From Tubiluchus corallicola (taxonomy: Eukaryota > Animalia > Priapulida): DNA of 64,000 nt. The translations under genes and the position numbers were made by a program. Below, in pieces: positions 34,401 through 64,000 of this stretch. Below the pieces are notes generated by a model. The model was not told where the DNA came from. It saw nothing but the letters and a program-made list of their open reading frames with translations, and did no database searches. The stretch is taken from contig JAQGDQ010002377.1 in assembly GCA_030141605.1 (NCBI GenBank), forward strand, positions 372,001 through 436,000. Reading direction: 5' to 3'. The stretch's first letter is position 1. Each line of letters begins with the position of its first letter.

Positions 34401-35900
34401 GGGTATTGGCCATTTATAAACGTCTTTGTTTCCTACTACAAGTTAATTTTGGTTTGTTTGCAGGTGGGAGTTCATCACAGACGAAAATGACATTGGCTTT
34501 GGCTTGTACCTGAAAACGGATGGCACTCCCATTGAAAAACTCAAACCGTCTGATTTAACGAATGTGCGAAGCTTGCAGCGGTGTAACTGCCATCTAGTGC
34601 CAGAGACAGGAAGTTTCATTGCAGAAGTTCCAGGCATATGTAAGTATATGATTATGCATTTGTGCAGCCCATCTTAGTTTTTTTAGCAAACACTATTGTT
34701 AGCCAGTTTCTGGATGAGTTAGTGCTTGTCACATAGTTCTTCTAGTTAGTTGAAAAGCATCTTTAATGTTATTTATAGAACAGAAGAACAGAGGACAGAG
34801 ATGCTTATCTATGCAGTGACAAGTAGGAGTGAGCATCGAATGTTCGAGTTTGAACATTCAAATCAAATTCGAACGAGTTTTTTTAGTTTGAATTCGATTC
34901 GAATGTAAAACTATAGATTCCAATATTCAGCACTTCAATCACATACATTCTTTATCATTAAAGTGATTGAAACATCATGCAATTAGCATAATTCAGCTGT
35001 GATTTCTGTGCACAATTTTAAACAAATTATTAGTGTTTTTTCAAATTCGATTCTATAGATTCGAATATTCATCACTTCAATCACATACATTTTTTATCAT
35101 TAAAATGATCGAAACATCATGCAATTAGCATAATTTAGCTGTGATTTCTGTGCACAATTTCAAACAAATTATTAGTGGTTTTACTGCAGAACAAAATCGA
35201 GTAATATGTATGATCCTTGTAAGACTATTTTACTGGTGATTCGAAAACTTGTTTGAAAATCTTTCAATTTGAATTTGAATTTGAAATACTGAAGCTCGTT
35301 TCGATTCGAATTTGCTTTCTGGCAGAGAATGCTCACCCCTAATGACAAGGTCGTTCAACCCTGTAGGGGATGTTAGTAGATCTGGTATTTCAGAAAATTA
35401 TTTCAATGGTAGTCTAGTCCTCGTCTGGAGCTTAGACTACAAAATGATCTAATTAAATTTCAAAGAGTAAGCTCTTTACAGACAGTAATTTAACATAAAA
35501 GTTACAAGGCATGAACAGAGTGAATTTTTTCAGACTGATTTTTTTTCATCAGTTATTTGACAATTATGCATTAAAAATTGATATATAATTAAGCTATTTG
35601 CGCAATCGATGATTAGATTGCTCTAACTGTTGCTGTATGCGACTTTCCAGATATGGAAGAAAGCTGTTTTTTTGTTTAAAATGCTGAAGAACAATTGGAA
35701 GCATATTGTTATAGTACTTTACAGCAAATGAATATTGCAGGTATTCTGTTTCGTGCAGCAAGCCACACTTGTAAAATTTCTTAGCGGAGTTTATTGTATT
35801 GTTTTTAGATGTCACGTTATTCGACAATTCGTACAGTTGGACAAAGAACAAAACACTATGGTATAAGGTTGATGTTCTTTCGCCTGATGATCGCTTGTAA
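19499..35900 (+). CDS. SEC14L2: SEC14-like protein (CRAL-TRIO + GOLD; SEC14L2/3/4-like), 394 aa. Exons 19499-19552, 23809-23878, 24311-24354, 24920-24982, 27281-27371, 27939-28033, 28374-28452, 29402-29482, 30408-30491, 31175-31281, 33104-33252, 34464-34639, 35809-35900
   Basis: MSGYFGDLSPTQSETLAE-FKTQVRD...DDYYYLRWLRARDFELKKSELMLRN...[31 protein letters not shown]...FGGQNRGPDGDPKC...YGGEIPKSYY...WEFITDENDIGFG...CNCHLVPETG...FDNSYSWTKNK follows SEC14L2 along its length. All 12 introns are GT-AG and phases sum to 1185 nt. Exact paralog assignment is uncertain. Confidence 0.93.
23270..23790 (+). mobile_element. LINE ORF2 C-terminal CCHC zinc-knuckle fragment plus probable 3' UTR in SEC14L intron 1
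   Basis: QLRMGYSKLN..HLHKIGGANSSLCECG...SEHFLSEC motif. Confidence 0.7.
28542..29189. mobile_element. Non-autonomous hAT-type transposon
   Basis: Ends TAAGGGTG...CACCCCTA, with a perfect 8-bp TSD GTTTATTA at 28534-28541 and 29190-29197. Confidence 0.8.
29636..30229. repeat. Minisatellite, 30-bp unit GACCTATTGTTCTGAATTAGTCTGTACTTA, ~20 copies, in SEC14L intron 8
   Basis: Directly visible, highly similar tandem copies. Confidence 0.97.
30978..31148. mobile_element. Tc1/mariner-type MITE (related partial copy near 25420-25555)
   Basis: TA-CAGTC..ACCTC...GAGGTTTGATT-ATA ends. The internal aatgccaa.ctcgcttaa...agcaaaacaaaat...tgccaacttttt..agtcccaaat sequence is shared with 25420-25555. Confidence 0.6.
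31421..31705. repeat. Local diverged direct duplication (~100 bp, ~180-bp period)
   Basis: tgtactggac.gcaacg...tagacaaaa.tttggagta.tttttgttaactcta...gagaaaatgtct occurs twice. Confidence 0.7.
32135..32958. mobile_element. Non-autonomous Tc1/mariner-pogo (Tc2-like) transposon
   Basis: Perfect 23-bp terminal inverted repeats (TIRs) CCGTATATACTCGCATATAAGCC, TA TSD on both sides, and subterminal catataagccgaccccc repeats. Confidence 0.9.
34824..35341. mobile_element. Non-autonomous hAT-type transposon with an internal ~130-bp duplication
   Basis: TIRs TAGGAGTGAGCAT / ATGCTCACCCCTA, TSD GTGACAAG/ATGACAAG (7/8 match), TTCGAA-rich subtermini. Confidence 0.82.
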
Positions 35901-42500: not shown

Positions 42501-45500
42501 CTCTGATTTTCTTTAATAAACTTCAGTATATTAGCTCAAAAGTCATTGTAATAATAATAGCAATTTATTTCCTTAATACTCATGGTACAGTTCAACCAAT
42601 TATGAAGTTGAAGTTTCCAATTGCTGCTTAAAAACAATTATCGTGATTGACAGTTTGTTTCAAAATGCAGACTCACACGAGTTACTCATGCATTCCCTTT
42701 TTTACCAGAAATTCAACTGATCAAAATTTGCATATACAACCTTTAATTCCTCTTGAGAAAAAGTGACAGTGCTGCTGCAGCTGCTGGCATCGACTATGGC
42801 ACTGCTCAAGCCTTGTTTCATTACTTGCCGCTGATAAATCTTTTCTTCTATGGTGCCCTGTATAAGACAAAATAACTAACACACCTGCAAATAAATATGT
42901 AATGCAACAGTAACATTGGTTAATACATATAGACAGCTAGGTAACAGAACCATCTCAAAACAGTATTGTAGGCCCCCAGAAAAGCAGTGTATTGGGACCC
43001 CCTACCTACACAACCATTCTGGAACAAAAATGTAAATGTCGATAAAATTAAACATATATTTATTGTATTGGTACTTCCAGTATAGTATAGTATAGCTTAG
43101 CATAGTATTTATTTATTGACAGCAAATCACAACATTCATAGATTAGCATGGGCCCGATGCACATCGAGTCCCGGGGCAACTGCCCAGCATGCCCATGCAT
43201 TAGAGATGCCTCTGCCATGCAAGGCTAATAGTACAACAGTTAAAGGTCTACATTTACTAGGAAGTGAAATGTGAAAGCAGGTTTAGAGAAAACAGAATTC
43301 CTACAATTAAGCTGTTACCGAATTGAAATATTTTATAACATATTTTCCTGAAGCAAAAGGTACAATGTAAGTACTGCCAACAAGTTGTTGGCATTTAGCA
43401 ACCAACAAACAAGGATCGTGAATGCATCTTCTCAAGCGGAGCAATAAGCGGCTTCATGTAACAATAAACCTTCGTTGTACAAAAGACTGCAGATCCCAAG
43501 TCAGATGTCACTAGAATGGTTATTTGCAATCTGCCAAGTGCTTTACAGTAAAAAAGACAATGACACCATCCCAGACACGGACTCCATAAGTGGTCCAATG
43601 GTTGAACTGCGCAGATAGAGTACAGTATCAGGAATTAGGTCTTTACAAGTGAGAACAGGCATATTCCAAGTTTTTTCACGTACTCCCAGCCACTAATGTG
43701 AGCTACTTTTCTTGTCTAAGAGTCACACCACAAGTTGAAAAAGTGCAAGGAAAAGATTGGAAGATTCATCTAGTAATACAACATCTACATTCATCAAGAT
43801 TAAGATTATGACAGAGGTTCGGCAAAACGTTTGTCAGTAATACGGTCATGTATTTGAGTGGGCCGGCTGACACTTTAAATGAGATCCTGACCTCCCCAGA
43901 CAATGTGATACTTGCTGAAAGACGATGTGATCAACCTGACAAGACGTTGTCCAGGACATGTGGGTCTCCCGCTATGATTCATCACAATTCAAATCAACAA
44001 CTCTTATGCATATAAAAAGCTAACAGTGCATTTCTGTAACTATCTACATAGTAGATGACAATGAGTGCAAGTTTTCTTGAACAGCTTGAACCACTTTCTG
44101 TCTGCAGAAGCAGAGAGTGGAGTCCTTTTGTTAGACATGTACAATTGTGCAGGCATTAGTATCCACATCATTTTACATCATTCAGTCAATTATAGGCATG
44201 ACATCAATACCATGGGACACTTCCAGCACCTGTGCCATAGTGGCCAGTATGCTGTGGATGCCTGTAATAAGCAGCATGCTAGGGTTCCCCGTTTGTGCAT
44301 GGTTAGTATGCATTATCATAATCTATAATTACATAATAATTCATAGGTTTTTGTTACTATTTTTACTAGGTGGCATTTAGCTAGCATGGCACATTACTGG
44401 GAAAGGGGAGACCAGAAAAGAAAAGCAGCAACCGCTACCTGCCAATTTCATGTGACGGGCAAATGATCCAAAAACTGTATCTAAACTAATTGCGTTATGG
44501 TTAGTAAATAAAACGATATTGTAGAAGAAAACACCTAAAAATGATTCAATCCAATTCTAAGAATAAAATTGCTTTTAAAAGACAGTAATAAAATACCACT
44601 GTGAGCAGACGATATATGTGCACTGTTCTTTTCTGTCCATCTCGCCATACACGAGCCATGGCCTGCAGGTCATTGGCCGGATTCCAGTCAATGTCGTAGA
44701 GAATAAGCCTCGAAGCTCCGATCAGGTTTAATCCTTGTCCGCCAGCTTTGCAGCTTAGTAAGAATACAGCTAGAATGCGAATACAACAGAATTTAATTAA
44801 TAATTTATGCAAGTCATGGATCGAACTCATCGTTGACAAAGATATCAAGCAGTTTCTTCTAGTATTAGTATTTATAAAATTTCATGTCCATAAGCTTAAA
44901 TAATGATGCCAAATTTAGGTGTGTTTGAAGTGACATATACCAACAAAATTACCACCTTTTTAGCCATTTCTAAATATGAGCAAGAATGCAAAACCAAACT
45001 ACATCACGATTTCACTAACCACATAAACAACTAAAACTCTACATACTTTCTGAAGCGTTCCTGTTGTTAAACTGATCTACCAGTTCTTGCCGTCTACTGG
45101 AAGGTGTTGTCCCATCCAGTCTCAAGTAACGATAATTGCTTTTAACGCACACTTCTTGTAAAATATCTAACGTCTAAAAACATTAACCACTTGATTACAA
45201 ATACATTTCAACTGCATCGATGTACAACAAATTTAGGACGAGGTTTCTCAGGAATTTACAAAATAAACAATTTAGTGGTTGTAGTTTACAAATAGTGGTA
45301 ACTTTTAACACAATTTAATTACGGTGTAACAATTAATACTCATAGTATATAGTATAATAATAAGTGCTATTAATACAATTATGAATGCATGTTTAAACTT
45401 TATTGCATTTTCTTTATGGCATATTCAGACGTCGAGACTTCTCCCGCAACTTCTCTCTGAGAGTACGCCACACGTGTGAATGGTTGGCAACTTTTCTTGC

Positions 45501-45812
45501 AGCTTATTGCAAACCCAGAAGGAAAAGAGAAAAGTTGCACAGCAAGTTGCGAGAGAAGTTGCCAAACCACTCACACCTGCAACTACTCTCAGACAGAAGT
45601 TGCGCAGCAAATTGCGAGATTAGTCTCTACGTCTGAACGTGCCAGTAGCATACCTCAGTATAATTTGAAACAACAACAGATTTCTCTACATTTTTGTTTG
45701 TTGCATGAAAAGAGTACAGCAAGCTAGATAACACAAGGAGTTTCCCTGAATGTTCTGCCAGTGACACGTGCTCTCCAGAAAACAATGACAGTATATCGTC
45801 AAAAAGGCACAA
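39533..45812 (-). CDS. RAD54B: DNA repair/recombination SNF2-family ATPase RAD54B, 3' part only. Exons 45654-45812, 45047-45173, 44597-44769, 42741-42857, 42081-42281, 39533-39607
   Basis: [12 protein letters not shown]...[17 protein letters not shown]...LRLDGTTP...[46 protein letters not shown]...[11 protein letters not shown]...FSQEELKDLFTL...CATHDLL...[12 protein letters not shown]...[14 protein letters not shown] and LSMxQLxxWxH favour RAD54B over RAD54L. GT-AG introns with consistent phases; 5' exons not seen. Confidence 0.92.
40368..40570. repeat. Near-perfect tandem duplication of ~100 bp
   Basis: actgaacggcaaccata...ctaattgcaccaggc occurs at 40368-40466 and 40472-40570. Confidence 0.9.
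40756..41760 (+). mobile_element. DNA transposon relic: putative left end plus frameshifted Cys-rich transposase-like N-terminus
   Basis: TTAA-GAACGCGTCC end, then caagATGGCGGCC start giving [12 protein letters not shown]...KCG...P...LLACTKD..AHL, and after a frameshift [12 protein letters not shown]. Family assignment is from recall only. Confidence 0.4.
42945..43214. mobile_element. hAT-like MITE
   Basis: Ends CAGAACCATCTC / GAGATGCCTCTG with GGGCCC-type subterminal motifs; TSD is degenerate. Confidence 0.55.
45417..45644. mobile_element. Palindromic MITE (PIF/Harbinger-like)
   Basis: Long imperfect inverted repeat TGGCATATTCAGACGTCGAGACT...AGTCTCTACGTCTGAACGTGCCA, flanked by TTA/GTA. Confidence 0.7.
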
Positions 45813-46559
45813 CTGTATGGAATAACAGACAGCCAAAATTAATATGCCATAAGAGTAATAAAACATAAGTTACATGCAGAAATTTAGTACAGTTAACTGT
45901 GCATGCTTGCACAGACAACAGTAATCAGAAAAATAAGGATTTTGATCAAGAAGTTGATTGACTAAGATACTAAGCTGGCGAATTCAGACTCAATTTGTGA
46001 AAGGAAATTTATCTTTTTTGAGAGGGATTACAATATTTTGTTTACGTACAGTATGTAGATTTAACAGTACTGCTAATTTACAACAGCTAGTGTTCTTGTT
46101 GGTAAGACAAAGTTAGTTTCAATTGTAGAAAAGTCATGTTCAAGACTACAGAATGTAAAATACCAAAAGCAAAATCAACATCAGAAATCAAAATTTTATA
46201 AGACATAGACAATTTATTTTTCTTCTCTTAAGCATAATGCAACAAATCAACAATTGACTGGATGTATGTTCCTTCCATTTCAGGACTGTGAATTTATAAC
46301 GATATCATTTTGAAGTAACTTTAAAAAAAATAAAATCTATAATACTAACTAACATGTACCTAATAATAGGCCCAGATCTATAATAAAGTCACAGGAAAAA
46401 AGTCACGGAAAAAGCCACAGTTCTGGCTAAGGTCAGGGTTAGGGTTATTTTTTTTCCAATGCATTTTGTCAGCAACTTTTTTACCTGGGATCAGATAACC
46501 AGTAATGATAGTAATGCTAGTTGTTACAGTAGTCAGCTATAAGACTAGATCTTAACTTT

Positions 46560-49491: not shown

Positions 49492-49578
49492 TGTGGCACT
49501 CCAGCACTCAGCCTTGGCTTATTTAATACCAGTGATTGTGGCACACCAGTACTCAGCCCTGGCTTATTTAATACCGGC
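49492..49578. repeat. Short tandem duplication (~45 bp)
   Basis: tgtggcac.ccag.actcagcc.tggcttatttaatacc occurs twice. Confidence 0.8.
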
Positions 49579-51343
49579 GGTTGTGACAGGATCTGGCAAA
49601 GGATTCTGTGATAATCAGGAATTATCAAGGATAATCCTTTAGATGAAACAGTGAATTGGCAGAAGTGTCTCAGCCCGGTTGGGAAGATGAATACACTCCC
49701 TGAAGGAGATAAGCAGCCCGAATCAGTGTAGTAAGTGAAACAGTTTAAAGTTCATATAGAATCCAGTGGTCATCTATATCGCATTCACTGACCAGTGCTA
49801 GGTTGCGGAGTTGAGCCTAAAAGCACATCAATGTGGGTTCCTGATTGATGAAAGTCGACCCCAAACCTGACTCTTGAGGCCTGACTCCCAGAAGTTCTTA
49901 AAATTTTGATTTTTGAGGCATTTTATTAACCAGACTCAAACCATTAGATGATAGATATTATATTATGAACCTTAAGTAAAGGTACTGCTTAATATTTATG
50001 TTTAAGGCAGGAGTATTTTATTATCAACAGACTGTGGCTTTTCTTTACCTGAAGATCTAATCAGCAAAACATTAGAACCAATGGAATTTTAAATGCATTG
50101 TTTTAAGCTGCAGACCCTGCATTGATCAGCTTCAGTATTGTTTAATTTTACTTATCTAAGCATATGCCATTATAATTCGGCTATCACCCTTGCCACAGAG
50201 ATACTAAAAAGTATTATTATACTGTATTAATAGCATGTAATTATATAAAAATAACTTCCTGAAGTTTTTCTAGACAATAAAAGAGTAGCTATAAATTGTT
50301 GATATTATGATTTATAAATTATTGAACATGTTTTATTTGTTTTGACTTAAAGATTTGAAAGACATGGGGAAGCATTTTGCAATTTTTTAACTCATTATCA
50401 TTGAATATTAGAGCTACATTTATAGCCGAATGACTGTTATAAGTCTGTTGCTACTAAGCTTTAATTATCTGACTTTTTTGGTGAAACAGTTGTCTTAGCT
50501 ATCAAAACTGACTAATTTGTTGCTAAAATAGAACATGTGACAGCAATTTTTGCAAAAAGTTAAAAGTCAAATGAAAACTAACATGAGAAAACGAATAATT
50601 TTTAAGAACAAGAAACAAAGCCATTAGAAGTGCTATTTAGTACACCGCTGTGCGCTATCTTCCGATATGATTTATTGAAGACATTTTATTTTGTTTTCCA
50701 AACTCTTAGCATCGACTAAGCACGGCATCGAATTGCACCAAGGAAATTCTGTCCTTTTGTCCGTTATGCTACAGATTTTGTTATGTTACTTTTGTTTTCT
50801 ATATTATTGTGTTATGGTTTTGAAGTAGTTTTGCAAGGTTGTCTCTCATACCAGTTCAGTTCTTTGGTGTCTTGATCATCTTAGGCGTGTATTTTTTGTT
50901 GCCTCAGATGTGAGATATCAAAAGCCGACAATATACCTTTAGTCTGTTCCCGCAAAATTCAGTTACTTTTTTAGTCACTTTTCGATTTATACATGCCCAT
51001 TAAAAAATTTTACGAAACGAAATTGTGTAAATACATGGCAACAATTTCAAAATAGAAAGCATGAATTTTTTTTACTCGAGAGAGGTACTCTGACTTTTCA
51101 GACTCAGAAATAAACACTTGTACTTCAATTACTTGTGTTGGATAAGTAATCCATGTTGTTTATGTTGGGAATTAGGGTTATGATTCTATTTAATTTTACT
51201 GTAGCATTATTCTTCGAGAAAAATCATTATTTAATGTTTTTAATCTCGAATTTTATATTAGTTAAAGTTAACGTTTTATTCACAGGTGAACAATTTGATG
51301 CTAGGAAAGCAAGTGAATAGTCTGCACAATCCCTTGTTCAATC

Positions 51344-54300
51344 ATGAATGCTTATGAAATGAACGAAGAGCTGCAAGCTGCCATTGAACAGTTAGAACTT
51401 GAGCAAATCGATCTGTGTGGAGAGCAGGCTGGCGAAAGCTCTATTTCAGAACTGGTTTATACTAACAGCATCAAAAATATTACTAGCAGCGTAACAGATG
51501 TGGGCTCAGTACAGCAGCAGCAAGCAGGCAGTCAGACTCGTTCAGCTGTGACTCATGCTACGTATCAGCAGCAGGCTCTATCCAGAATAAATGAGTTTAA
51601 TGTCAGCCTTGAGCTTATGAATACAGCCTGCGTTGATAGTAGAGATGGTTTGTGTGCGCTGGGTACCGGGACCGCTGTAAAAGATTTTGTCACTTTGGAC
51701 GAATTCCAAGCTCTGCAGCAGAATCAAATGAAAGAATCATTTTCTGCTAGTGGGTTACTAGAGAGTTTAAACAATAATGAAATAACTAATGGTACACCAG
51801 AGCATTTAGACAATAATGAAAATGTTTTTGACACTCTACAGAGTGAAGGGTACATTGAAACTGCTATTGATTCATTAGGGACATTAGAGAATAACGACGT
51901 TGCTGTGACTATTGGCAGCAATGCATTAGATATAAATCTACTGCCGTTCAGCCAGCAAGACTCAGATCATTCGTTGTCTAGGCAACAACACACTACTTCA
52001 CAAAAAGTAGAAATCAATAAGCAATATGAATTGGATCTGCCCATAGAAGATGTTACGGAGCAACGTCTTGCTAGTGATGTTACCAAGCAGATGTGCAGTG
52101 ATTATGGTATTGATGTGAAATTCAGTGTGGAAAATTTTACAAGTATGCCTGTAAATAATCAGGATAATGACTTGAATCGTGATATAGATGATTCTGATTC
52201 TGATTCTTCAGATTCAGATTCTAATTCTGACGACTTTGATAATCAGGACAGTATTCAGAATTCAGTTGCTCCTTTAAATGAAAAAACTTCTGATAGCATA
52301 ATTAATGGTTCGGTTTTCGAACGCAATGAAGCTAAAGTGATAAGTGGTTTTCCCATTAGTCTAAACAGTGATAATGTTGAACAATTACAAGTAGAATGTA
52401 AAATCACAAATTCTCCAGTAAATATTGAAGAATGTCAAAAATACACAATAGAAAATTCCTGTAAGACGATCTTATTCAAAACTGATGAACAGTGTGAATG
52501 TCTCGACTGTGGTGCATCACTGAGTAATCTTCTGAGTTCACAAGAACATCTTGGATTAATGACAGCCGTTGTGAAGTTGTGTACATGCTTACAGGAAGGT
52601 AGAAAATGTTTACATTATGCAAATGAAGTAAGCACCTCTAAGTTACATGTGAGTGAACTATACAGTTGTCATATGTGTGAAATAACTTTTCACAGACTGT
52701 CTGCATTAACAAATCACATGGTTATGAAACATAATGATGAGGACTCAACTGACAATCAAAGTGTTGCTGCTAATTACATACAACCACCTGCTAGTTTGCA
52801 AAAGACCCATAAATGTGGAATTTGTCCAGCTTCATTTTCCAATGTTTTTAATTTGCAAAAGCATGGTAGAGTTGTTCATAGTGCAATACCAAAACAGTAT
52901 CGATGTACTAAATGTACTGCTTCTTTTCAAGCCTTGAAGAATTTAACATTACATCTTCGGCTTCACGAAAATGAGCAGCAGTCATTTGAGTCTCAGCGAA
53001 TAGATAAAATAGCGACAAAAACCCCAACAGCAGGAACTGATGAAGCCAGTAAGCCTGATCAAGCTAGTAAGCCTGACAGTATTGACAAAATACCAGTGAA
53101 TGGCATTAAGAAGGCTGGGAATACAGATGAGAAATCAATAAAGTGTAGAATGTGCCCGGCTGCATTTAAACATACAGCAAGCCTTAAAAGGCACATACAA
53201 ATCACTCATAACAAGATAAAAATGTATTCATGCAAACTCTGCCCAGCTAGATTTGGAGTTAAATCAACAGTTAAAAAACATATGAGTGATGTGCATGGGG
53301 GTGTGCCTAAAAAGTATAAATGTCAACATTGTACTGCTTCATACAGAGCCCTGAAGAATTTGCAGCGGCACATGAAACTTCATATTGCTAAATTACAGCC
53401 TGTACAGGAAAAAAAGAAAAACCAGTACCTCTGTTTTTTGTGTAGCACAAGATGTTCATCAGCGGATGTTCTTAAAGAACATATTAAAACCCACTCTGAG
53501 ACGAAAGAGCCAACGGCAGATATAACAACTACACCAAGAAAAGCACTTCTGAAGATATTTAAGTGTAATGTCTGCTCAGTTAGTTTTCACAGTCGACTAG
53601 ACAGGGATGTGCATTTGCAAACTGCTCATGAGAAGGCAAAATCAACACCTGAGCAACAAAACAGTAGCTTGGATTCCAGTATATGCAGGGTATGCAAAAA
53701 CAGTTTTAATTCTAAAGCTCTCTTGGACCAGCACATGAAGCAGTATAAGAAGCTGTATGAGTGTAATGCTTGCCCTGCTATGTTCAAAGTATCCACTAAC
53801 AGAAATAAACACGTGAATAATGTGCATTCTGGTGCATTAAAGGCTTTCCGATGCGATGTTTGTGGAGGTGGATTTCACAGAGAATATAGCTTGCAAAGCC
53901 ACATGCTACTGCATAATCAAGCCCACAAAGAGCAATATAAGTGTGATAAGTGTGATTTCAATTGTAATTCGTCAGAACAGCTGAAGACTCATATCATTTG
54001 CAAGCATTCAGTAACTGCACAAAGTCCTGGAATTATCATAATGGACACTCCAACTGTAAGCCTGCAAAAAATCAAAGTAGAAGATTCACATGCCGAGGCT
54101 ATTACTATTCAGGAGTCTGCAGACATGGATTTTTGTGAAGATATGGAGCACTGTTGTGACATTTGTGGAAAGTTTTTCATGAAAGAGTCAGAGTTACTAG
54201 TACATGAAAAAGTACACATGGCACTAAAACCTTATAAATGTGGAATTTGTGGTCTAGACTTTTGTGACATGAGTACACTTGACATCCACCAAACATCACA

Positions 54301-57300
54301 TACCAACAAGTCATATGAAGCATACACAAAAATGGTTGCCGAGACTTCAAATTCAAGCTGCTATGTTGACTTCCAAAATATTGGTATGCGAGAACTACAC
54401 AGCAGTGGTAATGAAAATCTTAGTAATGAGAGAAAAGTGCCATTTGGGAAGAAAAGAGAAAGAGTTTATGAGTGTGACACGTGCAAGAAAGTCTTCAAAG
54501 ATGGAGGAACTCTGAAAGTTCATAAGCGCATACACACAAACGAAAGGCCATACATTTGTCACATTTGTCAAGCAACATTCAGACAACACCACCATCTAGT
54601 CAGACATGTAGCAAGCCATAGTGATGATAAACCATTTTCTTGTGATGTGTGCGGAAAAAGATTCAAATTAAGCGAATACCTCACAACACACAAGGCTGTG
54701 CATTCACAGGCTAAGAAATTCAAATGTGGAGTATGCGGCAAAGATTTTCGCCTATACAGCGATTTGAGAGCTCATCAGAAAGTTCATGCATCAAAAAACG
54801 CAAAGACTGATGGTATGTTTGACAATAAGCTTGCTTTTGATAGTCATGATACTAGTCACTCTAGGCTTAAACCCCACAAATGTCCCGTTTGTAAGAACGG
54901 TTTTAAAGTGGTTCGCCACATGAAAATTCATTTGTGGTCACATTCTAAGAACAATATGCACTATTGTCTCACTTGCGGAAAAAAATTTCAATCTCAAGTT
55001 GGCTTAGCTGTCCACAAAAGAATTCACATTGTAAAAAAAGAACTTGAAGAGGTTGTGAATGCAAGCACTAACTTGACGCAGTACGTGACCAGCACTAGTA
55101 AAGGTAAACAGTACCAATGTCCCGTATGTGAAGTGAAATTTGCACAGTCTACCTATCTGAGTGTACACTTGCGAGTTCACACAGGCGAGAAGCCATATAA
55201 GTGTGAGGTTTGCAATAGTCGTTTTCGACAAAGAGCCCATCTTAAATGTCACATGTTCACTCACACAGACCACAAACCTTTTTCTTGCAAAATATGTGCT
55301 GCATCTTTTAAGCAACTTTCAGCTTTAAAAAAACATGGTTTAGTACACACTGACTTAAAGCCATACAAATGTGATTCTTGTAGTGCAGAATTTGCACAAT
55401 CAACCGACTTGCTAAATCACATTATGGTACATAACGAAAATAGACCCTATACTTGTCAAACTTGTTTCGCTACATTTAAAACTGAATCATTCTTCAATAG
55501 CCACATTAAAGTACACACCCATCTTAAACCTCACGTTTGTGATGAATGTGGAAAAGACTTTCGAATCGCTGCAAATCTAACAGTTCATAAGAGAACTCAC
55601 TCTAACGAAAAGCCATACCAGTGTCAAATCTGCTCAAAGCGATTTAAACAAACAGGACACTTGAAAGTTCATTTGTCAATACATGCAGACTCGAAACCAT
55701 ATAAATGTGATTCTTGTGGTGCCAGTTTTAGGCAACCAGGAAACTTAAAGAGTCACCAAACCGTTCACACAGATGAAAGGCCACATGTATGTGACATTTG
55801 CCAATCAGCTTTTAAAACGTTTAGTTATTTGCAAAGCCACAAGCGAATACATACAGATTTGCGTCCATATAGCTGTACATGTGGAAAAACATTTAAAACA
55901 CCAGATGGATTGAAAGCGCACGAGAAAACTCACACAGATGAAAAGCCATATGAATGTCGCCATTGTCATGCACGCTTTAAGCAGCAGCCTCACCTCAAAA
56001 CTCATCTACTTACACATAGTACTCACAAACCTTATTGCTGTGACACTTGTGATGCACGCTTTAAACAGTCATCCCACTTGAAAGTTCACATGGCTGTTCA
56101 TAGCGATGTGCGACCATTTCCTTGTCATATTTGTGGTGCGGCATTTAAAACATCAACTTCACTCAGTAGTCATAAGCGCATTCACACGGACCTGAAGCCA
56201 TATGTATGTGACGTATGCAACAGAGCCTTTAAATTTTCGGAAGGACTAAAATCTCACAAGAAAACACACTCAGCTGACAAACCTTTTTCATGTGACCAGT
56301 GTGGAGCATGTTTTAAGTTGGCTGGTTATCTCAAAAGCCATATGCTAGTTCACACTGAAATACGACCCTATTGTTGTTCTACATGTGGAGCTACTTTTAA
56401 AACAGCCAGTTACCTCCATAACCACAGCAAAATTCACACAGACATTCGACCTCATATTTGCCACATTTGTGGAAAAGGTTTTAAAATGTCATCAAACTTG
56501 CGAGCTCATGCACGAACTCATTCAAACGAGAAACCATATTCTTGTGACCAATGCTCTGCACAGTTTAAGCAAATTGCTCATTTAAAGATGCATGTCAGAA
56601 CTCATTCTGATTTGAAACCCTATAAATGTGATTCCTGCGAATCTCGTTTCCGACAGTCTGCGCATTTAAAAGTTCACATGGCTGTTCACACTGAATCACG
56701 ACCATTTGCTTGTGAAATTTGTGGAGCTGCATTTAAAACACAATCATCATTAAACTCACACAAGAAAATCCATACAGACATTAAACCTCATTCATGTGAT
56801 GTATGTGGGAAATCATTCAAATTTGCTGTTGGATTAAAAACTCACAGGCGAATTCATACAAATGAGAGACCTTTCTCTTGCGATACATGCCATGCTAGTT
56901 TTCGACAGGCTGGCAATTTGAAAAGTCATATGGCAGTGCATACAGATGTTCGACCGTACGCATGCCCAACATGTCAAGCTGCCTTTAAAACATCATACTA
57001 TCTCCAGAATCACATTAGAATACACACGACTGCTCGTCCATTTCAATGTGATGTCTGTGAAAAATCTTTTAAATTTAAGGAGGGATTACAATCTCACAAA
57101 AAGACACACACAAATGAACGCCCATTTGAGTGCGATACATGCCATGCACGATTCAAGCAAGCTGCTTATCTCAGAAGTCACATGCTTGTACATTCAGATG
57201 AAAGAAATCATTTTTGTGACATTTGTGGATCAGCTTTTAAAACTGCTGTTTATCTTGCCAATCATAGGCGCATTCACACTGATATGAGACCATACAAATG

Positions 57301-60300
57301 TGATATTTGTTACAAGGATTTCAAGCTGCCCGATGGCTTAAAGGCACATAAGAAGACACATTCCGATGAAAAACCATACTCGTGTAATATATGTGGTGCA
57401 AAATTCCGGCAAACAGCCCACGTAAAGGCACACATGTTAACCCATTCAGATGCTAAACCTTATAAGTGTGACACCTGTGATGCTTGTTTTAAGCAGTCAG
57501 CTCACTTAAAATCACATCTTGCTGTACACAGTGAAGAAAGAAAGTACTCATGTGATATTTGTTATTCTGCTTTTAAAACATCTACTGCTCTAAACAGTCA
57601 TAAAAGAATACATACTGATATAAAGCCTTATATATGTGCTACATGTGGCAATGCTTTCAAAACACCAGACGGATTGAAATCTCACCAGATTAGTCATATG
57701 GATGAACGTCCGTTTGAATGTGATACATGTCATGCTAAATTTAAGCAATCCACAAACTTGAAATATCACATGGTGGTGCATTCGGAAGAAAGAAATTATA
57801 CATGTGATATATGTGACTCTGCTTTTAAAACTATGGCATATCTTACCACACATAAGCGTATTCATACAGAACTGCGTCCATACATTTGTGAATGTGGAAA
57901 AGACTTCAAGACACCTGATGGACTGAAATTGCATAAACGTACACACACAGGTGAGAAGCCATACTTCTGCAGTTTATGTGGTATGAGATTCAGGCAGTCA
58001 GGACATCTTAAATGTCACATGCAAACTATACATTCCGATTCTAAGCCATTTAAATGTGACACATGTGATGCATGTTTTAAACAGTCAGCAAACTTGCGCA
58101 GCCACATGGCCGTACATTCTGATATTCGTCCTTATCCATGTCCTATTTGTGAGGCCACTTTTAAAACATCTACTTCATTAAGCAGCCATAAACGAATACA
58201 CAGTGATATTAAACCACACATTTGTGACGTATGTGAAAAAGCATTTAAAACATCAGAAGGACTGAAGTCACACAAACACTCACACACAGATGCTAGACCC
58301 TTTGAGTGTGATACATGCCATGCCAAATTCAAGCAAGCAGGAAATTTAAAGAGCCACATGGTAGTGCATACTGAAGAACGTCCATGGACTTGTGATGTTT
58401 GTGAAGCCTCCTTTAAAACACAAGCATACCTTCATAGTCACAAACGTATCCACACTGATATAAGGCCTTACATTTGTGAATGTGGAAAAGATTTTAAAAC
58501 ACCCGATGCATTAAAACTTCATAAACGTACACATAGTGATGAAAAACCGTACGCTTGTGAAATTTGTCATTCAACATTTAAGCAGCTTGCCCATGTACGA
58601 GTTCACATGGCTACACATTCTGATCTCAAGCCATATAAATGTGACACTTGTAGTGCTAGCTTCAAGTTGGCAGCATATTTGAAAACCCACATGATTGTTC
58701 ACACTGAAGAAAGACCATGGATATGTGACGTTTGCCAAGCTGCTTTTAAAACGTCTAGTTATCTTAGCTCACATAAGAAAATTCACACAGATTTGAGACC
58801 ATACATTTGTGATCAGTGTGGAAAAGACTTCAAGCTTCCTGATGCCCTGAAACTTCACAAGAGAACACATTCAAATCTAAGACCGTTTTCATGTGATGTA
58901 TGTGGTCAGAAATTTCGGCAAACTGCACATGTTAAAGCACACATGCTTACGCATTCAGATTCAAAACCATTCAAATGTGATACTTGTGATGCTTGTTTTA
59001 AACAGTCCGGGAATTTGAAATCTCATATGACAGTACATTCTGATGTTCGGGCTTACTGTTGCCCCATATGCGGAACAGCTTTTAAAACAACCACATCATT
59101 AAACAGTCACAAACGGGTTCACAGTGACATTAAGCCTCATATCTGCTCCACTTGTGGCAAAGCTTTTAAAACTAGAGAAGGGCTAAAGTCACACAAATAC
59201 ACACACACAGATGAACGTCCATTTGCATGTGATACATGCAGTATGAGTTTTAAGCAATCCTCCAATTTAAAAAGTCACATGATTGTGCATACTGATGTAA
59301 GACCACACGTTTGTGATATATGTCAGGCAGCTTTTAAAACAGTTAGTTACCTCACTAGTCATAAACGAATTCACACAGATTTGAGACCATATAACTGCGA
59401 AATATGTGGAAAAGATTTCAAGTTACCAGATGGATTGAAACTCCATAAACGAATACACACCAATGAAAAACCTTTCTCGTGTGATACATGTCAAGCTGCC
59501 TTCAAGCAGTCTGCTCATCTCAAAGTTCATATGACAGTTCATACAGACGAGAGAAATCACATTTGTGATATATGTGAATCAGCTTTTAAAACTGCATCAT
59601 ACCTAGCCATTCATAAAAAAACACACAGTGATGTAAGACCTCATATCTGTGATATCTGTGGCAAGGGATTCAAGTTTACAGATGGGCTGAAAGCTCATAA
59701 AAAGACTCATACATCTGAGAAGCCATACCAATGTGAGATATGTTTTAGACGATTTCGACAAGGAGGACATTTAAAAATACATCTTCTTACACATTCTGAC
59801 TCAAAACCTTTTAAATGTGACACATGTGATGCATGTTTTAAACAGTCTGGCCATTTAAAGGTTCACATGTCAGTACATTCAGATGAAAGACCTTTCCCTT
59901 GTGCAGTGTGTGGTGCTGCATTCAAAACATCAACATCTCTGAGCACCCATAAACGTATTCACACTGACCTGAGACCCTATTCCTGTGACTTGTGTGACAA
60001 AGCATTCAAGTTTTCCACAGGCTTGAGAGCTCATAAAAAAACTCACACAGGAGAAAAGCCATATAGCTGCAAGATTTGCGGTGCTCGATTCAGACAAATT
60101 GGTCATGTGAAGGTACATATGACAACTCACTCAGACCTGAAGCCATATAGCTGTGACACATGTAACGCTTCTTTTAAATTAGCAAGTTACTTGAGAAGCC
60201 ATATGGTTGTCCATTCTGAAGAAAGAAAATGGACTTGTGACGTTTGTCAAGCATCATTTAAGACAAATACCTACCTTAATTCGCATAAGAAGATACATAC

Positions 60301-63154
60301 AGATTTACGGCCACACATTTGTGATATATGTTCCAAAGATTTCAAGCTGCCGGAAGCACTGCGCTTACATAAAAGAACACACACTGACATTCGACCTTAT
60401 TCATGCGAGCTGTGCAATGCAAAGTTTCGCCAAACAGGACATCTCAAGTGTCACATGCAGACAAGGCATTCAGATTTGAAACCATTTAAATGTGATACCT
60501 GTTCTGCATGCTTTAAACAACCTGCAAATTTAAGAACTCACATGCTAGTGCACACTGATGAAAGACCACATCAATGTCAGATATGTGGTGCTGCTTTCAA
60601 GACAACTACTGCTCTTAATTCTCACAAACAGGTGCACAGCGATGTACGCCCATTCATTTGTGCAAGATGTGGTAAGTCATTCAAAACCCGTAATGGGCTG
60701 AAATCACATAAAATCACTCACACTGATTCTAAGCCCTTTGAGTGTGATACATGCAGTGCCTGTTTCCGACAATCAGCACATTTGAAGGTTCACATGACTG
60801 TTCATTCTGACTACAGAGGATATCCTTGTACAGTATGTGGTGCTGCTTTCAAAACAGGTACTTCTTTGAAAAGTCACAGTCGTATACATACTGACATCAA
60901 GCCCTTTATATGTGATGTGTGTAACAGAGCATTTAAGTCAAAAGATGGGTTAAAACATCACAAGATAACTCATTCTAATGAAAGACCATTTGCATGTCTA
61001 CAATGCAGTGCTAAGTTTAAACAAGCCACTTATTTGAAAAACCATCAGTTAGTTCATTCAGATGTAAAACCATTTCAATGCCAAGTGTGCTCAGCTGCTT
61101 TTAAGCTGCCGGCTTATCTTAGGTCACACATGATGATTCACGGAGATTTAAAACCGTACCAGTGTCAGATATGCAATAAGCAATTCAGACATTGGAGCAC
61201 GCTGAAGATCCATACAAGAACACACACAAATGAACGGCCTTATGAATGTGAGACCTGCCATAAGATGTTCTCACAAAATGGTCATCTAAAGTTGCACATG
61301 ATGATTCACTCGGGCGAAAAGCCTTACTCGTGTACCGTGTGTAATAGGCGTTTTCGACAACATAGACACTTATTAACGCACAAAGTAAAACATGTAACTG
61401 ATCGACCATACCAATGTAATAGTTGCCAATCTGCTTTTAAAACACATACTTCATTGCAGTCTCATAAACGAATTCACACTGGTGAAAAACCGTATGAGTG
61501 CACCACGTGTTGCACAAGTTTTAGACAGCTGAGTCACTTAAGGAGGCATCAACAATGCCACAGAAACCCGGCTTCAAGGTTGAAACCATTTAAATGCACT
61601 TCTTGTCCAAAAGCATTTAGAAAGGCCACACATCTCCGAGCACATGAAATTGTCCATACTGATAGTAAGCCTTTCAAGTGCCCAATCTGTGATGCAGAAT
61701 TCCGTCACGGACGTTCGCGTAAAACACATATGAAATGTCACCAGCCTACACTCATGCATCAGTGTGATGTGTGCTTACAAAGCTTTAGTGAAGAGGAAGA
61801 ACTAAGATCACATTCTGAAAGTCATGTACAAGAAAGTGCATATACATGTGAACAATGTGGCGAAAAGTTTAAGAGAGCATCGCTTTTGTCAGCTCATACT
61901 GCATTACATGAGAGAGAGAAATTATCTGCTGATGGCTACATTGAATTTGATAGACCGTATCCTTGTTCACAGTGTAGTGCACAATATGAATCAAAACAAG
62001 GATTAGCAAAACATATGCTTGTTAGACATGCAACACTTGAAGACCTGCGTTGCAACTTGTGCCACAACACATTTACCTCATTGCAGTTACTACGTGAACA
62101 TATGAGAACTCACAAAGAAAAAGAACACATGTGCAATGTATGCAACAACACTTATACCTCAAAACATTTATTACGTATACATATGAAAATTCACAAACAT
62201 ACTAGTAAAGAACATGTTTGTAATGTGTGTGGGAAAGTTTTTAAAAATGCTAGTAGCCTTTGTCATCATAGAGAAATTCATGTTGAAGGCAGACCTCATG
62301 TGTGCACAAAATGCAATGCGTCTTTCAAAACAAAGAAAACTCTTTGGGCACACAGTAGGATTCATACAAGGGAAAAAGTGTTTTCTTGTAATAAATGCGG
62401 TGAAAAGTTTTCAGTAAAGGAACAGCTACTGCAACATAAGCAAAGTGCTCATTCAGTTGGTAAGACTAAGAAATGCTCTACTGCCAGTAAGAATTATGAC
62501 TGCGAACAATGTGCTGCCAGTTTCAAGTTCCTGACACTTTTAAAACAACACAAAGAGGCCCACAAAACTGCCATATGTGACAAAACACAACTTGTGAAAG
62601 GAACTGCCAGCAAACCACGAAAGACACACAAGTGTCCCGAGTGCAACAAATTGTTTACTCATTCGTGGAATTTGAAAAATCACCTGTATTCTCATCGTGC
62701 AAAACCCGTTTACAAATGTAATCTTTGTCCAAGTACATTCAGTAGGGAAGCACATTTAGTTAGGCACATAGCATGCCATAAAGGAAAAGAATTGTCAGTA
62801 AGTGTCAAAGTGCAAAGAATTCCTCATTTGCAAGAACAGCGCAATATGTCACAGACAGTTAATGATGCCCCAATACCAACTCCTGAATTCAATTATTTGC
62901 ATAACACAAACGAAATAGTTTTAGACAAAATTCCTATTAAGCAAGAACCCCTAGATTACTCCCTTGTGGAGGATGATACCTCCAGCCCTGTGCATGAAGA
63001 AGGTAGTAATGTAGATGATGCTAACTTCTGTATTGAAGAATGTAACATAGAAGAGTTTTACCTTTCACCATATTTGGGTGAAAGCAACAAAGAGACAGTA
63101 GGTGAAGGCTGTTCTGCTATCACCATTAAGAAGGAAATGTCGCACTTCTTGTAA
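51344..63154 (+). CDS. Giant poly-C2H2 zinc-finger protein, 3936 aa, ~110 fingers, CDS in one uninterrupted ORF
   Basis: 11,811-nt open frame. Acidic N-terminus, ~20 scattered fingers, then ~81 nearly contiguous fingers (55112 to ~61910) and ~9 more. A splice acceptor ttttattcacag lies at 51285 with in-frame stops before the ATG, supporting this start. Confidence 0.95.
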   Translation: MNAYEMNEELQAAIEQLELEQIDLCGEQAGESSISELVYTNSIKNITSSVTDVGSVQQQQAGSQTRSAVTHATYQQQALSRINEFNVSLELMNTACVDSRDGLCALGTGTAVKDFVTLDEFQALQQNQMKESFSASGLLESLNNNEITNGTPEHLDNNENVFDTLQSEGYIETAIDSLGTLENNDVAVTIGSNALDINLLPFSQQDSDHSLSRQQHTTSQKVEINKQYELDLPIEDVTEQRLASDVTKQMCSDYGIDVKFSVENFTSMPVNNQDNDLNRDIDDSDSDSSDSDSNSDDFDNQDSIQNSVAPLNEKTSDSIINGSVFERNEAKVISGFPISLNSDNVEQLQVECKITNSPVNIEECQKYTIENSCKTILFKTDEQCECLDCGASLSNLLSSQEHLGLMTAVVKLCTCLQEGRKCLHYANEVSTSKLHVSELYSCHMCEITFHRLSALTNHMVMKHNDEDSTDNQSVAANYIQPPASLQKTHKCGICPASFSNVFNLQKHGRVVHSAIPKQYRCTKCTASFQALKNLTLHLRLHENEQQSFESQRIDKIATKTPTAGTDEASKPDQASKPDSIDKIPVNGIKKAGNTDEKSIKCRMCPAAFKHTASLKRHIQITHNKIKMYSCKLCPARFGVKSTVKKHMSDVHGGVPKKYKCQHCTASYRALKNLQRHMKLHIAKLQPVQEKKKNQYLCFLCSTRCSSADVLKEHIKTHSETKEPTADITTTPRKALLKIFKCNVCSVSFHSRLDRDVHLQTAHEKAKSTPEQQNSSLDSSICRVCKNSFNSKALLDQHMKQYKKLYECNACPAMFKVSTNRNKHVNNVHSGALKAFRCDVCGGGFHREYSLQSHMLLHNQAHKEQYKCDKCDFNCNSSEQLKTHIICKHSVTAQSPGIIIMDTPTVSLQKIKVEDSHAEAITIQESADMDFCEDMEHCCDICGKFFMKESELLVHEKVHMALKPYKCGICGLDFCDMSTLDIHQTSHTNKSYEAYTKMVAETSNSSCYVDFQNIGMRELHSSGNENLSNERKVPFGKKRERVYECDTCKKVFKDGGTLKVHKRIHTNERPYICHICQATFRQHHHLVRHVASHSDDKPFSCDVCGKRFKLSEYLTTHKAVHSQAKKFKCGVCGKDFRLYSDLRAHQKVHASKNAKTDGMFDNKLAFDSHDTSHSRLKPHKCPVCKNGFKVVRHMKIHLWSHSKNNMHYCLTCGKKFQSQVGLAVHKRIHIVKKELEEVVNASTNLTQYVTSTSKGKQYQCPVCEVKFAQSTYLSVHLRVHTGEKPYKCEVCNSRFRQRAHLKCHMFTHTDHKPFSCKICAASFKQLSALKKHGLVHTDLKPYKCDSCSAEFAQSTDLLNHIMVHNENRPYTCQTCFATFKTESFFNSHIKVHTHLKPHVCDECGKDFRIAANLTVHKRTHSNEKPYQCQICSKRFKQTGHLKVHLSIHADSKPYKCDSCGASFRQPGNLKSHQTVHTDERPHVCDICQSAFKTFSYLQSHKRIHTDLRPYSCTCGKTFKTPDGLKAHEKTHTDEKPYECRHCHARFKQQPHLKTHLLTHSTHKPYCCDTCDARFKQSSHLKVHMAVHSDVRPFPCHICGAAFKTSTSLSSHKRIHTDLKPYVCDVCNRAFKFSEGLKSHKKTHSADKPFSCDQCGACFKLAGYLKSHMLVHTEIRPYCCSTCGATFKTASYLHNHSKIHTDIRPHICHICGKGFKMSSNLRAHARTHSNEKPYSCDQCSAQFKQIAHLKMHVRTHSDLKPYKCDSCESRFRQSAHLKVHMAVHTESRPFACEICGAAFKTQSSLNSHKKIHTDIKPHSCDVCGKSFKFAVGLKTHRRIHTNERPFSCDTCHASFRQAGNLKSHMAVHTDVRPYACPTCQAAFKTSYYLQNHIRIHTTARPFQCDVCEKSFKFKEGLQSHKKTHTNERPFECDTCHARFKQAAYLRSHMLVHSDERNHFCDICGSAFKTAVYLANHRRIHTDMRPYKCDICYKDFKLPDGLKAHKKTHSDEKPYSCNICGAKFRQTAHVKAHMLTHSDAKPYKCDTCDACFKQSAHLKSHLAVHSEERKYSCDICYSAFKTSTALNSHKRIHTDIKPYICATCGNAFKTPDGLKSHQISHMDERPFECDTCHAKFKQSTNLKYHMVVHSEERNYTCDICDSAFKTMAYLTTHKRIHTELRPYICECGKDFKTPDGLKLHKRTHTGEKPYFCSLCGMRFRQSGHLKCHMQTIHSDSKPFKCDTCDACFKQSANLRSHMAVHSDIRPYPCPICEATFKTSTSLSSHKRIHSDIKPHICDVCEKAFKTSEGLKSHKHSHTDARPFECDTCHAKFKQAGNLKSHMVVHTEERPWTCDVCEASFKTQAYLHSHKRIHTDIRPYICECGKDFKTPDALKLHKRTHSDEKPYACEICHSTFKQLAHVRVHMATHSDLKPYKCDTCSASFKLAAYLKTHMIVHTEERPWICDVCQAAFKTSSYLSSHKKIHTDLRPYICDQCGKDFKLPDALKLHKRTHSNLRPFSCDVCGQKFRQTAHVKAHMLTHSDSKPFKCDTCDACFKQSGNLKSHMTVHSDVRAYCCPICGTAFKTTTSLNSHKRVHSDIKPHICSTCGKAFKTREGLKSHKYTHTDERPFACDTCSMSFKQSSNLKSHMIVHTDVRPHVCDICQAAFKTVSYLTSHKRIHTDLRPYNCEICGKDFKLPDGLKLHKRIHTNEKPFSCDTCQAAFKQSAHLKVHMTVHTDERNHICDICESAFKTASYLAIHKKTHSDVRPHICDICGKGFKFTDGLKAHKKTHTSEKPYQCEICFRRFRQGGHLKIHLLTHSDSKPFKCDTCDACFKQSGHLKVHMSVHSDERPFPCAVCGAAFKTSTSLSTHKRIHTDLRPYSCDLCDKAFKFSTGLRAHKKTHTGEKPYSCKICGARFRQIGHVKVHMTTHSDLKPYSCDTCNASFKLASYLRSHMVVHSEERKWTCDVCQASFKTNTYLNSHKKIHTDLRPHICDICSKDFKLPEALRLHKRTHTDIRPYSCELCNAKFRQTGHLKCHMQTRHSDLKPFKCDTCSACFKQPANLRTHMLVHTDERPHQCQICGAAFKTTTALNSHKQVHSDVRPFICARCGKSFKTRNGLKSHKITHTDSKPFECDTCSACFRQSAHLKVHMTVHSDYRGYPCTVCGAAFKTGTSLKSHSRIHTDIKPFICDVCNRAFKSKDGLKHHKITHSNERPFACLQCSAKFKQATYLKNHQLVHSDVKPFQCQVCSAAFKLPAYLRSHMMIHGDLKPYQCQICNKQFRHWSTLKIHTRTHTNERPYECETCHKMFSQNGHLKLHMMIHSGEKPYSCTVCNRRFRQHRHLLTHKVKHVTDRPYQCNSCQSAFKTHTSLQSHKRIHTGEKPYECTTCCTSFRQLSHLRRHQQCHRNPASRLKPFKCTSCPKAFRKATHLRAHEIVHTDSKPFKCPICDAEFRHGRSRKTHMKCHQPTLMHQCDVCLQSFSEEEELRSHSESHVQESAYTCEQCGEKFKRASLLSAHTALHEREKLSADGYIEFDRPYPCSQCSAQYESKQGLAKHMLVRHATLEDLRCNLCHNTFTSLQLLREHMRTHKEKEHMCNVCNNTYTSKHLLRIHMKIHKHTSKEHVCNVCGKVFKNASSLCHHREIHVEGRPHVCTKCNASFKTKKTLWAHSRIHTREKVFSCNKCGEKFSVKEQLLQHKQSAHSVGKTKKCSTASKNYDCEQCAASFKFLTLLKQHKEAHKTAICDKTQLVKGTASKPRKTHKCPECNKLFTHSWNLKNHLYSHRAKPVYKCNLCPSTFSREAHLVRHIACHKGKELSVSVKVQRIPHLQEQRNMSQTVNDAPIPTPEFNYLHNTNEIVLDKIPIKQEPLDYSLVEDDTSSPVHEEGSNVDDANFCIEECNIEEFYLSPYLGESNKETVGEGCSAITIKKEMSHFL

Positions 63155-64000
63155 GTGGCTAATGAAAACTTTTATATTTACAAAATTGTCTGCAAAACTC
63201 ACTTATACTTATACTGCACAGTGTAGTGTACTATATTGCTAATTTTGTTTAATTGTTTGAACCTTGCACCACTTCTTTATTAAAATGTAGCGTAATTTAT
63301 CCATATTTGTTGCACAAGTTATGGAAGCATGTTAAGACTATCGTATAACTCATGATAAGCTTTGGGTAAACCTTTGTAAAATGAGTTACTTGCTGCAGAT
63401 GTTTTGTCACATTTTGAATACAAAGATATTTATGGTTTCTTGCAGCAAAAATGTAAGTCATGTATCTATAAGATAAAAGTTGCTGGAGCTACATGTACTG
63501 CTTTTCGTTTGCTAGCAATTGGGTATTCCCAGCTCTAGTTCTGCTCAAGTGATATATAACGGGCTTCATGAAGCCAAGTGACCTGAATGATAAAGTCCTT
63601 GCTGCTTCAACCTCAGAAAGCATTGATGAGATAGTCTCCAAAAATCATCACATTAGTGTATTGTTTTACTCAGTATTAGTAATAGAGTTAGTGTCACTAA
63701 CACTGTGTGTAATTTCAATATTATGTGTAAATTCAATCTGATGTGTTGTCTGTGTAAATCCAAGGTTAGTCGTTATGGTGCATGCACATTTGCTCTTCCA
63801 AACTATAAGTATTATTCAATTCACTTTTTTTTATGTTTTACATCTCGTATTGCTTCGATTTCCTAAAGAAAGGTTCATGGATGCGTGTATATTTGTCAGC
63901 TAAAGTTGCCTTAAGAGTTGATAAAATATGAATGAAATTATTGTAGGGTTATGTTATTGCTAGTATGTTAGTACCATTTACTCGATGTGACTTGATATTG

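Follow-up and report, generated by a model that had tools for sequence, protein, structure and literature searches.

Why a single animal gene should encode 109 zinc fingers, most of them following one another in a fixed order, and what such an array might hold on to are the questions raised by a 64,000-nucleotide stretch of the Tubiluchus corallicola genome (contig JAQGDQ010002377.1, positions 372,001 to 436,000; the whole of it is referred to here as the window). The dominant open reading frame (ORF) of the 64-kb window, located at 51317..63154 on the plus strand, comprises 3,945 codons from stop to stop and has its first ATG at 51344. Its product is of a known kind, a poly-C2H2 protein grown by multifinger duplication, and the best reading of its array is as an extreme case of internal array duplication, like those of ZNF775 and ZNF721. 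On balance, we think it likely, by a modest preference, that the 19 homologous modules of this array bind many copies of one short DNA motif piecemeal, rather than as a spiral along 200 bp. The elements on which the argument turns are as follows.

51344..63154, plus strand: single uninterrupted ORF of 3,936 amino acids with 109 C2H2 fingers
55118..61561, plus strand: unbroken 77-finger array (fingers 20 to 96)
55364..60973, plus strand: 67-finger ABC(D) core in 19 modules (fingers 23 to 89)
55934..57109, plus strand: two complete 7-finger units, D-A-B(S)-C-A-B(Y)-C (fingers 30 to 36 and 37 to 43)
57362..58534, plus strand: two complete 7-finger units (fingers 47 to 53 and 54 to 60), the most similar pair (70% at the DNA level)
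58871..59458, plus strand: fifth complete 7-finger unit (fingers 65 to 71)

The fingers are tandem C2H2 fingers of the Krüppel type (C-x2-C-x12-H-x3-H, with conserved Phe and Leu), spaced at 28 amino acids from start to start in 71 of the 76 steps of the 77-finger array, and the zinc ligands are kept in all of them. The initial annotation of this locus had sorted the core into four finger types, namely, A (CDTCxAxFKQxx(N/H)LKxHMxVH), B (CxxCxAAFKTxx(Y/S/A)LxSHKRIH), C (CxxCGKxFK(T/L/F)x(D/E)GLKxHKxTH) and D (CxICxxRFRQxxH(L/V)KxHxxTH). Unsupervised k-means clustering of fingers 23 to 89 (k = 4), to which these labels were not supplied, recovered identical types and identical module lengths (4,4,3,4,3,3,4,3,4,3,4,4,3,3,4,4,4,3,3; 19 modules, 67 fingers), with no transitions other than AB (19), BC (19), CD (10), DA (10) and CA (8). 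Silhouette values were near-flat around that choice of k (0.224, 0.233 and 0.216 for k = 3, 4 and 5). The autocorrelation peaks expected at lags 3, 4 and 7 were all seen: mean finger identity reached 0.39, 0.43 and 0.46 at these lags, with further peaks at lags 11 (0.44) and 18 (0.47), compared with 0.29 to 0.33 at lags 1, 2, 5 and 6, and the z-score at lag 7 was 6.9 against permutation of the 77-finger array. The reported link between the B finger and module length was also borne out (Fisher P = 0.0055): of the 10 four-finger modules, 9 carry Y/F at position +3 of B, and of the 9 three-finger modules, 7 carry S/A there.

When all 67 fingers were placed in a maximum-likelihood tree (26 columns, with many forks unresolved), a single branch set apart each of the types B, C and D, but three changes were required for A. 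The four recurrent types thus stand, but the idea of four separate finger clades was rejected: B, C and D can each be separated, and D nests inside A, so that the core holds three lineages of fingers and, in D, an offshoot of A. All eight B fingers of the S/A type fall into one clade (95/91), as do the ABC modules that carry them (95/88, 8 rows). Both clades support the proposed ancestral 7-finger unit; since seven of these eight modules follow a D, the unit is better phased as D-ABC-ABC, i.e., D-A-B(S)-C-A-B(Y)-C, than as the ABCD-ABC originally suggested. Judging from the sequence, an ABC triplet would have doubled and gained an extra A-like finger (D), after which block duplications and deletions produced the present order. 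Blocks of 7 fingers match best at distances of 7, 11 and 18 fingers, and only 5 complete units remain. Three pairs of two-finger blocks (31/76, 47/65 and 63/81) differ by five or fewer edits per finger and so fall within internal array duplication as delimited in PMC13541613 (at least two adjacent fingers, at most five edits each).

These duplications are not recent. Like fingers share a mean of 57 to 63% of their DNA, with a maximum of 81%, and the proportions of differing synonymous and nonsynonymous sites between them are 0.75 to 0.90 (pS) and 0.25 to 0.31 (pN), respectively; synonymous sites between repeats thus appear saturated, which indicates an old array held at the protein level. Tandem Repeats Finder (TRF) found no DNA-level tandem array in the core, and a recent minisatellite expansion was rejected on both grounds. 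An assembly artifact was likewise rejected, on the basis of colinear contigs from two sequencing runs: those of run X1 (possibly the source, and so not independent) cover 52395-62791, and those of run X5, which is about 5 to 6% diverged, are colinear and gap-free over 56449-57290 and 60143-61225. The matches of run X4, which stems from another study, are fragmentary and mostly reach 99% identity or more. Two opposite-strand joints in X5, at 61225/61653 (depth 11) and 55711/56350 (depth 2.55), are probably library chimeras.

The diverged run also provides an estimate of constraint, made with one contig per region and covering 8 of the 67 core fingers. Over fingers 80 to 87, 28 silent and 5 replacement differences give a ratio of nonsynonymous to synonymous rates (dN/dS) of about 0.04 (33 of the 35 differences listed); the replacements (R>K twice, T>S, S>N and D>H) are all but one clearly conservative, and none falls at helix position -1, +3 or +6. 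By comparison, the N-terminal stretch 52725-53260 has 14 silent and 19 replacement differences (dN/dS, 0.33; Fisher P = 0.0007 for the contrast). The core therefore appears to be under strong purifying selection, and the spacers among fingers 1 to 19 seem to evolve fast. Positive selection at contact residues, as predicted for an arms race with transposons (PMC10547256, in part), was rejected as a candidate for the eight fingers covered, and in this one comparison the gene does not share the positive selection of arms-race finger genes (KZNF, FiNZ-ZNF).

How the modules might bind is suggested by their residues. Base-facing positions carry Gln, Asn, His, Thr, Tyr and small or hydrophobic residues and no Arg, and several are fixed by type: -1 is Thr in 19/19 B fingers, D fingers have Gln at -1 and His at +3 in 10/10 cases, and near-invariant residues are Gln at -1 of A (16/19) and Gly at +3 of C (14/19). 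Under the finger recognition code, such Arg-free faces would prefer G-poor, A/T-rich sites. Each ABC(D) module may thus be a weak binding unit. The near-invariant Lys/Arg at -2, present in 66 of 67 fingers and in 17% of control fingers (n = 5,950, in arrays of at least six, from 342 retrieved proteins), would supply its grip, together with Lys at +5 of types A, C and D; the core as a whole is net basic (296 K+R, 170 D+E). In 60 of 67 linkers the second residue is D/E/N (Thr/Ser, Lys/Arg and Pro being mostly retained), which might loosen the latch between neighboring fingers, letting modules engage separately; affinity would then be gained through avidity, bridging or sampling of repeated sites by the 19 copies. 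The acidic ends of the protein, together with four hydrophobic-K-x-E motifs (which we take to be SUMO consensus sites), fit a chromatin regulator, and they might recruit chromatin factors. Elements of this scheme have been described elsewhere. Backbone contacts can support fingers with weak base contacts (PMC5588721), alternative engagement of subarrays was the norm in GHT-SELEX (high-throughput SELEX on genomic DNA), and the duplicated arrays of ZNF775 and ZNF721 are separate binding units, 140 human proteins having array duplications (PMC13541613).

A number of observations weigh against this reading. Arg or Lys occurs at -1, +3 or +6 in 0 of 67 core fingers (nor does it at +2), compared with 47% of control fingers; K/R is found at -5 in 20/67, compared with 83% of controls; and the glycine of the TGEKP linker, which enables latching onto DNA according to part of PMC8084297, is present in 2/67 linkers, compared with 68% of controls, so that the linkers are not of the TGEKP type of canonical DNA-binding C2H2 arrays. 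None of 59 control arrays of at least 15 fingers has a majority of D/E/N linkers, and 3 are Arg-poor (at most 7% of such fingers), one of them with 0/17. A binomial P of 2e-19 for the absence of Arg/Lys was discarded, since fingers are not independent; the flanking fingers of the same protein do have R/K at these positions (10/22 and 5/20). Arg-free helices and atypical linkers together weaken the case for DNA as the ligand and leave room for RNA or protein. The predicted fold does not restore it. A model of one 7-finger unit (fingers 47 to 53, from a ten-row internal alignment) contains seven canonical fingers with a mean predicted local distance difference test score (pLDDT) of 86.8 and a predicted template modeling score (pTM) of 0.44, which does not settle the geometry between fingers, and a single-sequence prediction of 14 fingers gave no usable fold (pLDDT, 29.5). 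Although the best Foldseek matches of the 7-finger model are the DNA-bound arrays of ZFP568, CTCF and PRDM9 (template modeling score, 0.48 to 0.64), this match of a predicted model reflects the finger geometry learned by AlphaFold and is no evidence of DNA binding. In addition, the dN/dS of the core comes from one contig of depth 11, and specificity tends to diverge in human duplicated arrays (PMC13541613, in part), whereas that of the modules here looks conserved at the sequence level. Protein searches (the best 120 of 199 near-length matches, the best 120 of 5,458 shorter ones, the best 150 of all representatives and, for a 7-finger profile, the best 120 of 216) returned no ortholog outside the sequencing runs but only generic finger proteins of at most 46% identity, among which short ortholog fragments could rank below the matches listed. 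Finally, the helical phase coherence of the modules is borderline rather than absent.

That coherence bears on the explanation first offered for the mean module length, a helical-turn ruler or coat in which threes and fours were mixed by selection so that like fingers would lie on the same side of periodic or satellite DNA over about 200 bp. We regard this as unlikely, and the same doubt attaches to the array as a DNA-binding counterpart of nebulin, Arg-free and loosely linked, with like fingers within half a turn, coating or measuring satellite or A/T-phased DNA over about 200 bp, the length of a nucleosome repeat. It is true that the best-fit period of 3.53 fingers corresponds to 10.6 bp at 3 bp per finger, that at 10.5 bp/turn an arc of 154 degrees contains the A fingers (coherence R = 0.74), that departures from a 3.5 lattice stay within 1.5 fingers, that the 77 fingers run without a long linker break and that all tested fingers deep in the array are constrained. 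However, shuffling of module order gave P = 0.086 for coherence, 0.32 for alternation and 0.15 for drift (0.05 at the fitted period), and neutral block-duplication simulations starting from one or two 3+4 units (12 settings) reached a mean of 3.42 to 3.58 in 24 to 66% of runs and the observed coherence in 3 to 24%; the models in which only 3 to 6% of runs did so speak for the ruler. Since neutral duplication thus gives comparable values, selection of the 3.5-finger mean to match a DNA turn is not supported. Coherence also depends on the assumed twist: it is 0.74 at 10.5 bp/turn, 0.26 at 11.0 and 0.22 at 11.2, the signal being lost over 11.0 to 11.3. Finger-bound DNA is underwound to about 11.2 bp/turn, a figure for which no source was found in open-licence papers. 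At 3 bp per finger, the distance between like fingers is 9 or 12 bp, never 10 or 11, so that a 10.5-bp periodic sequence would be half a triplet out at every step. Set beside the strict, partner-matched super-repeats of ruler proteins such as nebulin and titin, the 7-finger register is kept in 36/60 lag-7 pairs (phase P, 0.03 to 0.24) and the 21-bp register over at most 24/67 fingers, and 7 of the 18 module junctions are 3-3 or 4-4. Among the 13 of 59 control arrays that are periodic (z of at least 3.5), period 7 is not singled out (periods 2, 7 and 9 in three arrays each, 4 in two, and 5 and 6 in one each). Steps of two, three or four domains are usual in the growth of C2H2 repeats, whose duplication patterns are the most diverse (PMC1553488, in part), and DNA distortion limits joint binding, and hence continuous groove tracking, by short-linked fingers, of which usually four or five engage (PMC8084297, in part). 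Inheritance from the duplicated 7-finger unit is the simplest account of the 3.5 mean, and the helical-turn idea is not needed to explain the array. If true, it would amount to a new principle of DNA recognition; helical-turn-matched finger modules were not found described in open-licence papers, supplements aside.

The ligand might also be something other than DNA. Binding of structured or double-stranded RNA, or of nucleic acid without base specificity, by the modules as a multivalent basic scaffold has a small but real chance of being correct: it would suit the lack of Arg at base-reading positions, the shift of the basic residue to -2 and the noncanonical linkers. The canonical 28-amino-acid spacing and the invariant Gln, His and Thr at -1 and +3, which are typical base-reading residues, speak against it. 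C2H2 clusters can bind RNA, as do TFIIIA fingers 4 to 6 and CTCF fingers 1 and 10, and often bind proteins (PMC8084297, in part). In the latter case, the modules would attach to a protein partner or polymer of repeating build, as is supposed for the 7-module super-repeat of nebulin, which duplicates in sevens under likely functional constraint (PMC1553488, in part). Type-specific invariants that lie off the base-reading face (Asp after the first Cys and Val at +10 in A, and Arg in the B linker, 19/19 each) point that way, but they could equally set the packing of finger against finger, and we consider docking improbable. Most improbable, and largely refuted, is a grammar without maintained function, left by a recent PRDM9-like or transposon arms-race expansion or by misassembly. 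Large single-exon finger arrays do expand easily (PMC1553488, in part), and invertebrate arrays track transposons (PMC10547256, in part); against this stand the divergence of even the closest fingers, the saturated synonymous sites, the lack of a TRF array, the unchanged contact positions at a dN/dS of 0.04 and the gap-free colinearity, over long parts, of the X1 and diverged X5 contigs.

Several known systems come close to this protein. The initial annotation knew of no description of this architecture, which proved too strong, since multifinger duplication units are known from PMC1553488 and PMC13541613. Adjacent multifinger blocks duplicated within an array are described for ZNF775 (three homologous 3-finger arrays, likewise old and conserved) and ZNF721 (duplicated arrays with alpha-satellite sites) in part of PMC13541613. 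Here, by contrast, there are 19 copies rather than 2 or 3, in fixed order, with no KRAB, no Arg at base-reading positions and non-TGEKP linkers, and the genes are not orthologous. With the 7-module super-repeat of nebulin (PMC1553488, in part), the array shares an autocorrelation peak at 7, block growth and one large exon, but nebulin keeps strict sevens, whereas threes and fours are mixed here and extra peaks occur at 11 and 18. The DNA-bound arrays of ZFP568 and CTCF have the same canonical fold and tandem layout but consist of 10 or 11 nonrepetitive fingers at 27 to 34% identity, and Xfin-like, ZNF208-like and ZNF850-like matches, with many C2H2 fingers, lie at the generic-finger level (21 to 46% identity). 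The PRDM9 array (fold match 5v3g) resembles it in having single-exon tandem fingers grown by internal duplication. PRDM9 has near-identical single-finger units, fast-changing contact residues and a SET domain; the units here are old, multifinger and conserved, with a DNA identity of at most 0.81, and no SET domain was found in the three flanking segments scanned. What stands of the original claim is scale and regularity: the combination of 77 unbroken fingers, 19 modules, strict order, age and constraint, Arg-free helices and acidic linkers was not found described in open-licence papers, supplements aside.

The longest unbroken run among 462 retrieved proteins has 28 fingers, compared with 77 here, and the best of 6,836 retrieved triplets scored 0.38 against the ABC profile, compared with 0.42 to 0.58 for the window's own (self included). 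The retrieved proteins had been selected for their resemblance to the query, and long mammalian and human arrays are under-sampled among them, some human ones exceeding 30 fingers (PMC10287918, in part); a record array length is therefore plausible, but with the long human arrays outside the set, "longest known" does not follow. Among the retrieved proteins, P0137 (residues 591-1207) has a 23-finger Arg-poor array with canonical linkers, not of the ABC types, with weak peaks at lags 3, 4 and 7 (z of 2.0, 1.7 and 2.4), possibly an independent case of the same periodicity. Strongly periodic arrays were seen in P0136, P0006, P0164 and P0243, with period 5 (z of 8.5) or period 9 (z of 5.9 to 7.5).

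Why proteins have dozens of fingers when usually only four or five engage is posed as an open question in part of PMC10287918, and the present gene offers an unusually clean test case, with 19 natural variants of one old module, constrained deep into the array and without two features to which a central role in DNA binding is ascribed, Arg contacts and the TGEKP glycine. Surveys with a size limit can readily overlook such genes: one of 3,221 animal genomes limited ORFs to 10,000 bp (PMC10547256, in part), and the ORF here is 11.8 kb.

The remaining parts of the gene are listed below.

51270..51285 (CAG at 51283-51285), plus strand: candidate splice acceptor (T-rich tract, CAG), 58 bases 5' of the ATG
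51344..52666, plus strand: acidic N-terminal region of 441 amino acids (74 D/E versus 24 K/R)
52667..55027, plus strand: fingers 1 to 19, in small clusters with variable spacers
61595..62779, plus strand: fingers 97 to 109, with degenerate spacing, not part of the grammar
62780..63151, plus strand: acidic C-terminal tail of 124 amino acids with two hydrophobic-K-x-E motifs
63279..63284, plus strand: candidate polyadenylation hexamer, from sequence

The finger ORF is probably one coding exon. The candidate acceptor would imply an upstream noncoding exon, as judged from the sequence rather than from RNA reads; an in-frame stop at 51314-51316, directly 5' of the ATG and thus between it and the acceptor, rules out the splicing of an upstream coding exon, in this frame, at 51286. 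No Pfam family was matched in 51344-52666, and no KRAB, SCAN, BTB, ZAD or SET match was obtained there, so that the N-terminal effector domain of KRAB-, SCAN-, BTB- or ZAD-zinc-finger families is not seen. A search of the ESM Atlas with the N-terminal 762 amino acids (51344-53629) returned generic C2H2 clusters only, of low recognition value. The other two hydrophobic-K-x-E motifs lie in spacers near 54071 and 55031. Six pieces of sequencing run X6 match the ORF and the 3' region, but the RNA nature of that run is guessed, and the matches are not evidence of transcription. Over 62762-63900, the depth of an X1 contig climbs from about 190 in the ORF to about 278 at the 3' end.

The window is AT-rich animal DNA (GC content, 29 to 40%) with intron-split genes. 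Helicase C-terminal exons (PF00271), presumably of a RAD54/RAD54B-like gene, lie at 44546-45869 on the minus strand, oriented away from the finger gene, with which that gene may be head to head; a two-copy 45-bp repeat at 49492-49585 precedes the finger exon by about 1.7 kb. Exons of a metallophosphoesterase-fold gene (PF12850), whose motif we take to resemble VPS29, occupy 17273-17863 on the minus strand, and exons at 31099-34677 on the plus strand presumably encode a SEC14-like protein with a GOLD domain (the PF13897 match is weak). A reverse transcriptase relic of the long interspersed nuclear element (LINE) type, broken across several frames, is located at 7829-9195 on the plus strand (PF00078). 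Two minisatellites complete the picture, one at 10467-11148 (29-bp unit, about 24 copies) and one at 29635-30229 (30-bp unit, about 20 copies, 91% matches), the minus strand of which reads as an open decapeptide repeat.

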